Shown here: positions 4,555 through 54,943 of the stretch, in pieces
Layout of the letters: the number at the start of each line of letters is the position of its first letter
How positions within the stretch are numbered: the stretch's first letter is position 1
From: Escherichia coli
Lineage (GTDB): Bacteria; Pseudomonadota; Gammaproteobacteria; Enterobacterales; Enterobacteriaceae
DNA: 64,000 nt
Direction: 5' to 3' (one strand)
Assembly: GCF_002854065.1 (NCBI RefSeq)
Contig: NZ_CP024147.1
Translations under genes and position numbers: made by a program
Notes under the pieces: generated by a model
Told to the model about the DNA's origin: nothing
The model's database searches: none
Seen by the model: only the letters and a program-made list of their open reading frames with translations

Positions 4555-4993
4555 TTCACCCCTTGTGAAGTAACTCCATAAATGCCTCATATCCTGTTAA
4601 CCCGGCAATAACTTCTGCCGGATGCTGACACAATACGCTTGCCAGATAGCTGAATATTTTTAGCTCATGACGCGCATCGGCGGCGGCGCAGGCGATCAAA
4701 ACATGGTTAATGACTTCGTTATTCACCTCAACTGATTGGGCGAGGGTAATAAAAAATCCACGAAAACGTCGCTCCTGTTCGCTCCAGCAATGTGGGATGG
4801 CGAGGCGATTAACAATCAGGTTTTCACCTTCGCCTTCGCGGGCGATGATCCGTTGCGCTTCATCGGCGGTAATATGGTGTTGTGCGACTAATTGCGCACA
4901 AATTTGCCGGGTAATATGTTGCCAGCTTTCACCGCGTACATTCGAATAATGAAAACTTCCGGGGGCAGAGAAAAAACGCTCCGGTTGCTGGCG
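4555..4993 (-). pseudogene. frvR: 3' remnant (146 codons) of PTS-regulator gene frvR, C-terminal EIIA-like domain (AIPH motif); 5' part replaced by IS1
   Basis: Manual minus-strand translation gives an open frame from the IS1 junction to a stop at 4555-4557: ...NLIVNRLAIPHCWSEQERRFRGFF...MELLHKG*; lies next to yiiG as frvR does in K-12. Confidence 0.6.
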
Positions 4994-5008
4994 GGTAATG
5001 ACTCCAAC

Positions 5009-5512
5009 TTATTGATAGTGTTTTATGTTCAGATAATGCCCGATGACTTTGTCATGCAGCTCCACCGATTTTGAGAACGACAGCGACTTCCGTCCCAGCC
5101 GTGCCAGGTGCTGCCTCAGATTCAGGTTATGCCGCTCAATTCGCTGCGTATATCGCTTGCTGATTACGTGCAGCTTTCCCTTCAGGCGGGATTCATACAG
5201 CGGCCAGCCATCCGTCATCCATATCACCACGTCAAAGGGTGACAGCAGGCTCATAAGACGCCCCAGCGTCGCCATAGTGCGTTCACCGAATACGTGCGCA
5301 ACAACCGTCTTCCGGAGCCTGTCATACGCGTAAAACAGCCAGCGCTGGCGCGATTTAGCCCCGACGTATCCCCACTGTTCGTCCATTTCCGCGCAGACGA
5401 TGACGTCACTGCCCGGCTGTATGCGCGAGGTTACCGACTGCGGCCTGAGTTTTTTAAATGGCGGAAAATCGTGTTGAGGCCAACGCCCATAATGCGGGCG
5501 GTTGCCCGGCAT
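5009..5512 (-). CDS. insB: IS1 transposase InsB frame (expressed as InsAB' by -1 frameshift)
   Basis: 167-aa [16 protein letters not shown]... identical to copy 2. Confidence 0.9.
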
Positions 5513-5706
5513 CCAACGCCATTCATGGCCATATCAATGATTTTCTGGTGCGTACCGGGTTGAGAAGCGGTGTAAGTGAACTGCAGTTGCCATGTTTTAC
5601 GGCAGTGAGAGCAGAGATAGCGCTGATGTCCGGCAGTGCTTTTGCCGTTACGCACCACCCCGTCAGTAGCTGAACAGGAGGGACAGCTGATAGAAACAGA
5701 AGCCAC
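5431..5706 (-). CDS. insA: IS1 InsA (transposition inhibitor / N-terminal part of transposase)
   Basis: 91-aa [26 protein letters not shown]... Confidence 0.9.
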
Positions 5707-5761
5707 TGGAGCACCTCAAAAACACCATCATACACTAAATCAGTAAGTTGGCAGCATCACC

Positions 5762-7063
5762 ATACGTCCCGAGGTAAATATTAAAGTTCTCCATATCCAT
5801 CACATTAGCGAACTGATAAGACGCATGAATGGTGTGAATGGTGTACGTCCCTTCATCATCAATCCAGCAGTCGTTATCACAAACTACACCGCTGAATTCA
5901 TCAATCTTATTGTGCGCGTAGATATAACCGAGCTCGAAACGTTTCCACAGCGCGTTAATCCCGGCAGTGAAATCTTTCTCATTATTAGCATCTAAATAGG
6001 CGGTATTAAGATTAACCACAATGCCATTGTCCGGATCCGTTTTCAGGCCGTTCCAGGTCATGCTCATACCATAGCCGGTACGATCGGACTGATCGACAAA
6101 ATTACCCTTGCTATCGGTATAACCATAAGCATTATTTACCACGTTCGCTTCCATCGCTGCGGAAACGGTGAATTCTTCCGTCGGCGACCAGGCAATTACT
6201 GGGCGCAGATAAGCAACATTTTTCTGCTGCTCCATATCGCGTCCATGATAATTACCGTCATTATATAAAGATGTTCCGTCTTCAAGTAACGTATTTAATT
6301 CAAAATACCAGTTATCGAGTTGTTTGCTGACGAGGAAATTACCGCCAGCGTTAGAGCGCCCGCGGCCCTCTTTCATCATATAGATATAACCGCTGCCATC
6401 GTCATAAAGATCGTTCGCAGTATTACCGGAATGTTCAACAAAGGTATCCTGATTCAGCGGGAACATATCGTAGGCTTCAAAACGGCCTACTTTGACCTTC
6501 CAGTCGTTTTCTTTGCCAAAGAAGAATACCGCATCATCGATATTTACTGAACCGTGCATATCACCCAGCGGTTGTGCGGAGAACCCGGCGAAATAACCGT
6601 TGTCCATCTTTCGCATACCGTCAAAACCTAACAGAATACGACCATTGAGATTCCACTGTTCATTAGTGGGATCGCTATTCACATCAGCGTTGGTCATTGC
6701 CAGCAGGCCATGATTACTTTCCGCATCCATATTAAATTCTACGTCGCCGTAGATTTTTAAATCGCCATAACCTGAAAGCAAAAGATTAGGTGAGGTGGCA
6801 TTTTTCTTTGCAGATTCCGTCGTTGCCTGTCCATTTACCGGCGTATTGCCCTGAGCGGCCTTAATTTCGCGGATCTCAGCGGCTTGTTGTGTCTGCAGCT
6901 GTTTAACCTGGCTCTCTGCTTTTGCTGCCCGCATTTCTGCCGCTTCCAGGCGTTCTTCCAGCAATGCCATGCGTTGTTCCAGCGTTAAATGCTGTGTTTT
7001 TGCCATACCGGTACTACATGCCAATAATAAACCGATGGCTAAAGATAATGTCGATTTTTTCAT
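5762..7063 (-). pseudogene. 5' part (434 codons) of a sugar-porin-like outer membrane protein gene, interrupted by IS1; the annotated ORF's last 8 codons (GDAANLLI*) come from the IS1 end
   Basis: Signal peptide MKKSTLSLAIGLLLACSTGMA, N-terminal coiled-coil (LEQRMALLEERLEAAEMRAAKAESQVKQLQ), then Gly/Tyr/Asn/Asp-rich sequence typical of beta-barrel glycoporins; ORF runs into the IS1 inverted repeat. Confidence 0.75.
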
Positions 7064-7540
7064 TATTTACGTTCCCTGAAATAAAGGAGGCCCTACGCTT
7101 TCCAAAAGGAATACGTATATAGAGAAATATAAAGTGTGCACTTTCGAATTTTTAATCCAACTTCAGCAGGCCGATGGATAGTATCCCGCCGCATAATATG
7201 AGTAAATCCGCTGATTTCCTGGAACGTGAGGAATATAACAATAGTGCCGTTTTTAACTAAATATCGTAAAAAATATTAGATATGATTCACGCTGACTCAT
7301 AAGCCACAAATATAAATAATGTTTAGACAAATTATCTGAGACATTTAAACATTCACAAAATCATTAAAGAATGATTTTTTATTCACAAGATTTATTTTAC
7401 CTACTAATATGTGCCTTACGCCGCAAAATTTATCCTTCACTCTGCTTTATATTGTCACGACTTCACGACATATCCGCGCTCATCACAAACCCGCCCCGCT
7501 ATTACAATTAACGTAAATATTTTTTCATGGAGTCCGATTA
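7064..7540. promoter_or_regulatory. AT-rich divergent intergenic region between porin gene and PTS EIIA-like gene; contains palindrome AATCATT-N4-AATGATT (7358-7375) flanked by attcacaa direct repeats
   Basis: Sequence inspection only; no promoter experimentally placed. Confidence 0.3.
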
Positions 7541-7694
7541 ATGGCAGCTCTTACTGCAAGCTGTATTGACCTGAATATTCAGGGCAATGGCACTTATTCC
7601 ATTCTGAAACAGTTAGCGACAATGGCGTTACAAAACGGTTTTATCACCGACTCACACCAGTTCCTGCAAACCCTGCTGCTGCGCGAAAAAATGC
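7541..7694 (+). pseudogene. 5' fragment (51 codons) of a PTS EIIA (fructose/mannitol-type) gene, possibly frvA, truncated by IS1 copy 2
   Basis: ATG at 7541 with GGAG upstream; MAALTASCIDLNIQGNGTYSILKQLATMALQNGFITDSHQFLQTLLLREKM resembles EIIA N-termini; frame stops inside the IS1 repeat. Confidence 0.5.
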
Positions 7695-7749
7695 GGTGAT
7701 GCTGCCAACTTACTGATTTAGTGTATGATGGTGTTTTTGAGGTGCTCCA

Positions 7750-8025
7750 GTGGCTTCTGTTTCTATCAGCTGTCCCTCCTGTTCAGCTACTGACGGGGTG
7801 GTGCGTAACGGCAAAAGCACTGCCGGACATCAGCGCTATCTCTGCTCTCACTGCCGTAAAACATGGCAACTGCAGTTCACTTACACCGCTTCTCAACCCG
7901 GTACGCACCAGAAAATCATTGATATGGCCATGAATGGCGTTGGATGCCGGGCAACCGCCCGCATTATGGGCGTTGGCCTCAACACGATTTTCCGCCATTT
8001 AAAAAACTCAGGCCGCAGTCGGTAA
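7750..8025 (+). CDS. insA: IS1 InsA
   Basis: 91-aa ORF identical to copy 1. Confidence 0.9.
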
Positions 8026-8447
8026 CCTCGCGCATACAGCCGGGCAGTGACGTCATCGTCTGCGCGGAAATGGACGAACAGTGGGGATACGTCGGGGCTA
8101 AATCGCGCCAGCGCTGGCTGTTTTACGCGTATGACAGGCTCCGGAAGACGGTTGTTGCGCACGTATTCGGTGAACGCACTATGGCGACGCTGGGGCGTCT
8201 TATGAGCCTGCTGTCACCCTTTGACGTGGTGATATGGATGACGGATGGCTGGCCGCTGTATGAATCCCGCCTGAAGGGAAAGCTGCACGTAATCAGCAAG
8301 CGATATACGCAGCGAATTGAGCGGCATAACCTGAATCTGAGGCAGCACCTGGCACGGCTGGGACGGAAGTCGCTGTCGTTCTCAAAATCGGTGGAGCTGC
8401 ATGACAAAGTCATCGGGCATTATCTGAACATAAAACACTATCAATAA
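7944..8447 (+). CDS. insB: IS1 transposase InsB frame
   Basis: 167-aa ORF identical to copy 1; A6C slippery motif ttaaaaaactc at about 7999-8009. Confidence 0.9.
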
Positions 8448-8462
8448 GTTGGAGTCATTACC

Positions 8463-8564
8463 GGGACGTATTACTCCATTCTGGATAGCGACGGCGATAA
8501 AAAACACGGTGATGATACTGATGACCGTTACGGCGCACGCGTTCGCTTTAAATACTTCTTCTGA
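8463..8564 (+). pseudogene. Displaced 3' end of the porin gene (33 codons including the 9-bp target duplication, then stop)
   Basis: Starts with gggacgtat (reverse complement of 5762-5770) and reads in frame YSILDSDGDKKHGDDTDDRYGARVRFKYFF*, a classic beta-barrel C-terminus with terminal Phe. Confidence 0.65.
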
Positions 8565-9753: not shown

Positions 9754-9797
9754 GTTCTGTGTTCCTGTAAATTCGGTGTTGTCGGATGCACGACCCG

Positions 9798-10196
9798 TAG
9801 GCCGGATAAGGCGCTCGTGCCGCATCCGGCAATCAATGCCTGATGCGACGCTGTCGCGTCTTATCAGGCCTACAACTATTGCCGACCTGTAGGCCGGATA
9901 AGGCACTTGTGCCGCATCCGGCAATCAATGCCTGATGCGACGCTGTTGCGTCTTATCAGGCCTACAACTGTTGCCGACCTGTAGGCCGGATAAGGCACTT
10001 GTGCCGCATCCGGCAATCAATGCCTGATGCGACGCTGTCGCGTCTTATCAGGCCTACAACTATTGCCGACCTGTAGGCCGGATAAGGCACTTGTGCCGCA
10101 TCCGGCAATCAATGCCTGATGCGATGTCGCGTCTTATCAGGCCTACAACTGTTGCCGACCTGTAGGCCGGATAAGGCACTTGTGCCGCATCCGGCA
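9798..10196. repeat. BIME/REP array: about four tandem ~100-bp units, each with two REP palindromes
   Basis: Unit gtaggccggataaggcRctYgtgccgcatccggcaatcaatgcctgatgcgacgctgtYgcgtcttatcaggcctacaactRttgccgacct repeats head-to-tail with point differences. Confidence 0.85.
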
Positions 10197-20453: not shown

Positions 20454-21148
20454 GAAGCAGAAACCATCAGGTAGCCGCGACCACGCAAAGTTTTAAACCA
20501 CGGGTGACCATCTTTACGATCCGGCAGTTTACGACGCAGGTTGGAAATGTGCATATCGATAGCGCGGTCGAAAGGCGTCAGGCGTTTGCCCAGCACTTCC
20601 TGGCTTAAATGTTCACGGGAAACCACCTGACCCAGATGCTGTGCCAGCAAATAGAGCAGGGTAAACTCAGTACCGGTTAACTCCAGCGTTTGCCCGTCGA
20701 AGCTGGCTTCCTGACGGCCTGGATTCAGCACTAAGGCATCAACTTCCAGTGTCGGTGAACCGTTGTCGTTGTTTTGCTGTTGCTCGCTCCAGTGCGAACG
20801 GCGCAGGATCGCGCGAATACGTGCCACCAGCTCACGATCATTAAACGGTTTCGGGAGATAGTCATCTGCGCCCAGCTCAAGGCCGAGAACGCGATCAAGT
20901 TCACTGCCGCGCGCCGTCAACATAATGACAGGCGTCTGGTGTGTCTGGCGAAGTGCTTTTAATGTGTCGATACCATTTTTCTTCGGCATCATTACGTCAA
21001 GCAAAAGTAAATCAATGCTGTCGTCCAGAAGATCAAGCGCCTGTTCCCCATCGTGGGCAACAATCACGTTGAAGCCTTCCATCTCGAGCAGCTCCTTTAA
21101 TAGGGAAGTCAGCTCTCGGTCATCATCAACTAACAGGATTTTATTCAT
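20450..21148 (-). CDS. cpxR: Response regulator CpxR
   Basis: 232-aa ORF; 4-bp overlap with cpxA. Confidence 0.95.
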   Translation of the reverse strand: MNKILLVDDDRELTSLLKELLEMEGFNVIVAHDGEQALDLLDDSIDLLLLDVMMPKKNGIDTLKALRQTHQTPVIMLTARGSELDRVLGLELGADDYLPKPFNDRELVARIRAILRRSHWSEQQQNNDNGSPTLEVDALVLNPGRQEASFDGQTLELTGTEFTLLYLLAQHLGQVVSREHLSQEVLGKRLTPFDRAIDMHISNLRRKLPDRKDGHPWFKTLRGRGYLMVSAS

Positions 21149-23992: not shown

Positions 23993-24044
23993 TGATTTCG
24001 GAAAAAGGCAGATTCCTTTAGCCTGAAACCGATGACAGAAGCAA

Positions 24045-24158
24045 AAATGCCTGATTCGCTTCGCTTATCAGGCCTACGTGAATTCTGCAATTTATTGAAT
24101 TTACAAACTTTTGTAGGCCGGATAAGGCGTTCGCGCCGCATCCGGCATTGATAAAGCG
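24045..24158. repeat. REP/BIME pair between pfkA and sbp
   Basis: Two REP palindromes separated by attctgcaatttattgaatttacaa. Confidence 0.6.
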
Positions 24159-54799: not shown

Positions 54800-54898
54800 T
54801 GCCGGATGCGGAGTGAACGCCTTATCCGGCCTACAAAAGCACGCAAATTCAATATATTGCAGAGATTGCGTAGGCCTGATAAGCGTAGCGCATCAGGC
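54800..54898. repeat. REP/BIME pair between yijF and gldA
   Basis: gccggatgcggagtgaacgccttatccggcctac ... gtaggcctgataagcgtagcgcatcaggc. Confidence 0.6.
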
Positions 54899-54943
54899 AA
54901 TTTTGCGTTCAAACTCCCGGACAAGCCGGGAGTTTGGAGTAGG

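Follow-up and report, generated by a model that had tools for sequence, protein, structure and literature searches.

The 64,000-nt stretch of Escherichia coli DNA analyzed here, referred to as the window, is an ordinary chromosomal region that runs from fdo through yiiG, frv, rha, sodA and cpx and, farther on, hslVU to rpmE. In the formate dehydrogenase alpha-subunit gene, a SECIS_3 element of 84 bits is found on the minus strand at 1631-1689, which is expected because this is a selenoprotein gene. Between rhaD and rhaA, a tandem array at 9791-10196, composed of 4.4 copies of a 92-bp unit, gives five Rfam matches to the REP-derived family naRNA4 and looks like an ordinary BIME/REP cluster. A pair of 107-nt inverted repeats (24041-24147 and 54800-54906), 87% complementary and 30 kb apart, has one arm overlapped by a match to ES036/CssrF at 24070-24111, and a second ES036 match exists at 44997-45038; the repeat pair and these matches are probably dispersed intergenic repeat elements.

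Two complete IS1 elements in opposite orientation enclose a 1.9-kb segment of porin and frvA sequence, and the features of the locus are compiled in Table 1. A repeat search across the 64-kb window returned the elements as a 768-nt perfect inverted repeat. Compared with IS1A of K-12 MG1655, the window element aligns without gaps from end to end and is identical at 760 of 768 positions, with 8 substitutions, while its identity with K-12 IS1B/C is 767/768 and IS1D lies 3 nt away; no indels relative to K-12 IS1A, B, C or D were found in the alignments. IS1 that is 100% identical to the window element is present in many E. coli chromosome and plasmid records, which number in the thousands. The terminal inverted repeats of IS1, imperfect and about 23 bp long (GGTGATGCTGCCAACTTACTGAT / GGTAATGACTCCAACTTATTGAT), were recognized at the ends of both copies with 0 mismatches, and a search for the same two sequences in the 64-kb window found no IS1 ends beyond the four expected. 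The slippery site, insA, the -1 insB' frame, both terminal inverted repeats and the promoter-like site in IRL are all intact and identical between the copies. Taken together, the length of about 768 bp, the inverted repeats, insA, the -1 DDE ORF, the A6C site, the fusion product and the target duplication are the features that define membership in the IS1 family.

Table 1. Features of the two IS1 copies and of the rearranged sequences adjoining them in the 64-kb window
Feature	Position	Strand	Description
frvR 3' remnant	4556-4993	-	joined directly to IRR of copy 1, without target duplication
IS1 copy 1	4994-5761	-	complete 768-bp element, 100% identical to copy 2
IRR, copy 1	4994-5016	-	0 mismatches
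insB' frame, copy 1	5009-5512	-	ORF, mirror of copy 2
insA, copy 1	5431-5706	-	ORF, mirror of copy 2
A6C slippery heptamer, copy 1	5449-5455	-	IS1 nt 307-313, A_AAA_AAC
Promoter-like site in IRL, copy 1	5754-5727	-	CTGCCA-16-TATGAT, sequence match
IRL, copy 1	5739-5761	-	0 mismatches
Second copy of GGGACGTAT	5762-5770	-	adjoins IRL of copy 1, inverted orientation
Inverted inner segment	5762-7694		porin 5' part, divergent intergenic region, first 51 codons of frvA
Carbohydrate porin 5' part (Porin_8)	5762-7063	-	in inverted segment
frvA, first 51 codons	7541-7694	+	in inverted segment
IS1 copy 2	7695-8462	+	complete 768-bp element, perfect inverted repeat with copy 1
IRL, copy 2	7695-7717	+	0 mismatches
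Promoter-like site in IRL, copy 2	7702-7729	+	CTGCCA-16-TATGAT, sequence match
insA, copy 2	7750-8025	+	GTG start, 91 aa, zinc ribbon and helix-turn-helix
insB' frame, copy 2	7944-8447	+	-1 relative to insA; C-terminal part of 232-aa InsAB' from the shift site onward
A6C slippery heptamer, copy 2	8001-8007	+	IS1 nt 307-313, A_AAA_AAC
IRR, copy 2	8440-8462	+	0 mismatches
Target-site duplication GGGACGTAT	8463-8471	+	9 bp, adjoins IRR of copy 2
Carbohydrate porin 3' remnant	8463-8564	+	34 codons including stop

The initial annotation of this DNA placed the A6C slippery sequence of IS1 in the insA/insB overlap of copy 2 and an equivalent site in copy 1, and the presence of both was confirmed, the two copies being 100% identical. 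A motif search of the 64-kb window found the exact 11-mer TTAAAAAACTC twice, at 7999-8009 on the plus strand and at 5447-5457 on the minus strand, which corresponds to nt 305-315 of each 768-bp IS1. The heptamer begins at the third base of an insA codon, in the X_XXY_YYZ phase for tandem tRNA slippage, and the insA stop codon follows 16 nt downstream. The heptamer is situated inside the overlap between insA and the -1 frame ORF, the sole place where the two frames overlap, and alignment with the reference IS1 revealed an intact slippery site and two intact frames in both copies, with no disruption. In Pfam searches, insA gave the InsA-N and InsA-C domains, PF03811 (E = 3e-21) and PF12759 (E = 1.7e-30), and the -1 frame, which is open as far as the insB' stop in both copies, covered 131/131 profile positions of PF03400 (DDE_Tnp_IS1, E = 2.3e-78). 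The conceptual -1 fusion of 232 aa scored 243.8 bits against NF033558, the NCBIfam equivalog "IS1 family transposase" with a cut-off of 100 bits, and the match extends in one stretch from residue 8 to residue 207, across the junction at residue 86. In other genomes, identical DNA bears the PGAP label [quoted passage not shown], and the length of the fusion agrees with the 698-nt joined CDS annotated there. On these sequence comparisons, the A-run is very probably the canonical programmed -1 ribosomal frameshift site of IS1, intact in both inverted copies, of an element that drove the rearrangement of the locus.

InsA is the default product of IS1 and represses the weak promoter in IRL, and the A6C frameshift of IS1 has been characterized since 1989-1991; its occurrence here is therefore textbook biology, and pointing it out was correct but ordinary. 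In the window copies, default translation would yield the 91-aa InsA repressor, while a rare -1 slip on the A-run would bypass the insA stop and lead ribosomes into the insB' frame to produce the 232-aa InsAB', composed of the zinc ribbon, the helix-turn-helix and the DDE domain. A low slip rate would set the ratio of InsAB' to InsA and thereby keep transposition rare. The suggestion that both copies can make InsAB' is supported to the extent that the frames are intact and the predicted fusion is a full-length transposase of the family; with these prerequisites present in the sequence, frameshifting and transposase production would be expected to follow the established IS1 mechanism, whose function is known from published work on IS1A/E and plasmid IS1 (PMC12428005, PMC5009743). 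In that work, the A6C shift is made by ribosomes and is required for InsAB', and hard-wiring the shift increased transposition about 900-fold (PMC12428005); the shift rate given there is about 2% (PMC12428005). The RNA on the 3' side of the site, which has a minimum free energy of -32 kcal/mol, folds no better than its shuffled versions (-29.75 +/- 2.96 kcal/mol, z = -0.76), and the region downstream of the site gave no Rfam match at E <= 1. A stimulatory RNA structure is thus without computational support, which fits a low-efficiency site.

Two other explanations of the A-run can be weighed against ribosomal frameshifting. The fused transposase might arise through slippage of RNA polymerase on A6, which would bring the two frames into phase in the mRNA, and transcriptional realignment on homopolymer runs is indeed how some IS families obtain their transposase (PMC5009743). 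This is very unlikely for the window copies because the bacterial examples described are runs of 9 A or T (PMC5009743), not six as here; moreover, the phase of the heptamer, X_XXY_YYZ, is exactly the one for re-pairing of tandem tRNAs, IS1 is cited among the IS families that decode via a frameshift event (PMC5009743), and it is ribosomes that perform the -1 shift at A6C (PMC12428005). The A-run might otherwise be a chance sequence without any recoding role, given that the motif is short and that the window contains two further, unrelated matches to TTAAAAAACTC, each with one mismatch, about as many as chance would give. Chance is, however, ruled out by the surroundings of the motif, an element whose exact sequence recurs as IS1 in thousands of E. 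coli records: the two exact sites occupy homologous positions in complete IS1 copies, within the sole insA/insB' overlap, where the -1 fusion restores a full-length, family-conformant transposase. The alignment with IS1A, the phase of the heptamer and the NF033558 match of the fusion together refute a chance origin, which we regard as having practically no probability, and leave programmed ribosomal frameshifting as the preferred explanation.

The surroundings of the two copies record what the element has done. A BLAST comparison with strain 100416 showed that the shared blocks are 100% identical and that 5762-7694 is inverted in the window relative to both flanks; the porin gene is consequently found in two pieces on opposite strands, with the 5' part on the minus strand and the final 34 codons on the plus strand. 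In addition, the window lacks 4124 bp of strain 100416 that carry the remainder of frvA, frvB, frvX and the 5' part of frvR. The 9-mer GGGACGTAT is found at just two places in the 64-kb window, one beside each IS1 copy. The uninterrupted carbohydrate porin gene of strain 100416 contains it once, which identifies the pair as a 9-bp IS1 target duplication split between the two elements; its length falls within the 8-9 bp of IS1 target duplications. At the new junctions, 7694|7695, where codon 51 of frvA joins IRL of copy 2, and 4993|4994, where the frvR remnant joins IRR of copy 1, no matching target duplication was found, as would be expected after an adjacent deletion. The truncated porin ORF (5735-7063, minus strand, 442 aa) and the frvA stub (7541-7699, plus strand, 52 aa) both extend into an IRL, where they terminate. 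As a result, the intergenic region 7064-7540, which holds the divergent porin/frvA promoters, is now directed at both IS1 copies in the sense orientation, and read-through from it could raise the level of insA/insAB' mRNA.

The order of these events can be approached through public sequences that retain an earlier state. The 442-aa ORF in which porin and IS1 are fused was found in 72 blocks of public assemblies. Among the contigs concerned, five (L010-L014) contain the inner segment of the window bounded by IS1 ends, while the porin|IRL junction of the window recurs in three others (L008, L009 and L015), which are 100% identical to the window over 5734-7694 and go on into an intact frvA; in L008 the sequence extends farther, across frvB, frvX and most of frvR. 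L008 and L009 derive from isolates SRR14573963 and ERR6131752. Because the porin|IRL junction coexists with intact frvA in these three contigs, the insertion into the porin gene preceded the second copy, the inversion and the frv deletion. A one-step origin, in which a donor IS1 at the frvR'/'frvA junction attacked an intact porin target, would explain the inverted 9-bp duplication exactly and is nevertheless rejected as the primary history on the same evidence.

The history of the locus thus begins with the entry of IS1 into the carbohydrate porin gene next to rhaM, an event that produced the 9-bp duplication still visible beside the copies. A second, inverted copy then arose, the 1.9-kb segment between the copies was inverted, and 4.1 kb of frvA-frvB-frvX-frvR was lost. 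The porin copy would most simply have transposed into the frv operon by the intramolecular replicative route in trans, which creates an inverted second copy and flips the DNA in between, and the loss of the 4.1 kb would be explained by an IS1-adjacent deletion. These two steps would make up the shortest route after the porin insertion. IS1-family elements are stated to transpose replicatively (PMC12428005), and intramolecular replicative transposition in trans is recognized by a target duplication in inverted orientation, of which each inverted IS has one copy (PMC4471558). The inversions described for IS26 and Tn4401 (PMC4471558) likewise have two opposite IS copies that bracket an inverted segment, with an inverted target duplication beside each. 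They differ from the window in that the duplicated target here belongs to an older simple insertion, as is evident from the public contigs with an intact frv operon, while the junctions of the later event have no matching duplication because 4.1 kb has also been deleted. An intermediate with the junction ...GGAGTGCATTTTTT|IRR would place the target of the inversion in frvA, and one with ...TTCGCCAGCAA|IRL would place it in frvR; two scans of JGI metagenome contigs gave 0 matches to the predicted junctions for either target, a result that is uninformative. In the 5,426 complete E. coli genomes, neither the frvA|IRL junction nor the exact IRR|porin junction was present.

The locus is direct evidence of IS1 activity, and the recent activity proposed in the initial annotation gains support from the split 9-bp target duplication, the inverted inner segment, the 4.1-kb deletion and the public contigs in the earlier state. 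Related strains extend this picture. Strain CUWW06 (L002, 7494-8262) has the frvR'|IRR junction in common with the window at 100% identity, and its IRL joins a truncated rhaT. It seems that one more IS1-adjacent deletion within this lineage took away the porin gene together with most of the rha operon. The nearest case to the IRR|porin junction is that of ECZP248 (L005, ~5080), in which IS1 lies 1 bp from the insertion point of the window in the same orientation and represents an independent event. IS1 insertions or deletions in the porin/frv/rhaM interval also exist in strains 100416 (L003, 2863-3630) and HZ13 (L004, 3189-3957), and those in several unrelated E. coli strains are independent; IS1 seems to have a hot spot at the AT-rich end of the porin gene.

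Whether the window copies can move by themselves is a separate matter from their integrity. In BW25113, only IS1A and IS1E transpose appreciably, while IS1B, C, D and F reportedly hardly move although their A6C sites are intact (PMC12428005). An intact IS1 sequence is therefore necessary for autonomous transposition but not sufficient, since K-12 IS1B/C and IS1D, which are only 1-3 nt away from the window element, have the same intact site and are reported as nearly immobile. IS1A and IS1E of K-12, the "consensus" in transposition studies, have the same length, inverted repeats, gene layout, A6C site at nt 307-313 and 232-aa fusion as the window IS1, and two of the 8 substitutions that separate IS1A from it change the protein, giving L81F and S130R in the InsAB' of the window. 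L81F is in the helix-turn-helix, and both changes are common to the near-immobile K-12 copies; L81F was named in the K-12 study, by way of example, as a possible reason for the immobility (PMC12428005). IS1B/C of K-12 MG1655 has the same 768 bp, inverted repeats, insA, A6C site and frame layout as the window IS1 and differs from it at nt 704, which is A (Q217) in IS1B/C and T (L217) in the window. The window element thus has neither the private change L217Q of IS1B/C nor the private change H193Y of IS1D.

The distribution of these alleles, counted with allele-specific 41-mers across 5,426 complete E. coli genomes, bears on their effect. The F81 allele of the window type was found at 21,017 places at least, in 3,294 of the 5,426 genomes and with up to 45 per genome, and 4,902 of the places are on plasmids; the L81 allele of the IS1A type occupies at least 51,318 places in 4,854 genomes (maximum 58 per genome). 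The private alleles are confined to low copy numbers, Q217 at 1,075 places in 651 genomes (maximum 5 per genome) and Y193 at 402 places in 376 genomes (maximum 4). Clearly, the L81F/S130R background proliferates in nature and the private K-12 alleles do not. The abundance of F81 together with the low copy number of the private alleles indicates that the shared background is not by itself a dead end, and hints that the private changes, not L81F, underlie the reported immobility of K-12 IS1B/C and IS1D. It is quite possible, and we propose it tentatively, that the window IS1, with L81F and S130R and free of the private changes, is an autonomously active, naturally proliferating form.

The window copies might instead be intact on paper and poor autonomous transposons, with the rearrangements brought about by transposase that IS1A-type copies elsewhere in the genome supplied in trans, or by RecA recombination between IS1 copies. 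Such a view draws on the presence of L81F and S130R in the near-immobile K-12 copies and on the report that those copies can be moved in trans by over-produced IS1A-type InsAB' (PMC12903888), which means that the events here could have used transposase from other IS1 copies; the sister strain 100416 even has an IS1A-type copy at the same locus. The transposase of IS1 is, however, described as preferentially cis-acting (PMC12428005), and the spread of the F81 allele through genomes and plasmids, compared with the few copies per genome of Q217 and Y193, speaks against low autonomy. As for RecA, a second independent insertion, an adjacent deletion and a homologous inversion between the 768-bp repeats would lead to the same four junctions, yet this route requires one event more than the transposition route. 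We consider poor autonomy of the window copies, with rearrangement by such means, rather unlikely.

No matter how the copies were mobilized, the rearranged locus explains how the frv PTS operon and the neighboring carbohydrate porin gene were inactivated and rearranged in this lineage, and the 1.9-kb segment, flanked as it is by 768-bp inverted repeats, could flip by recombination and confuse assembly. If the window IS1 is indeed an autonomous form, K-12 IS1B/C and IS1D would owe their near-immobility to the single private substitutions L217Q and H193Y or to the genomic context, and not to L81F, and the allele counts provide a cheap, testable lead on the substitutions that disable the immobile IS1 copies of K-12.
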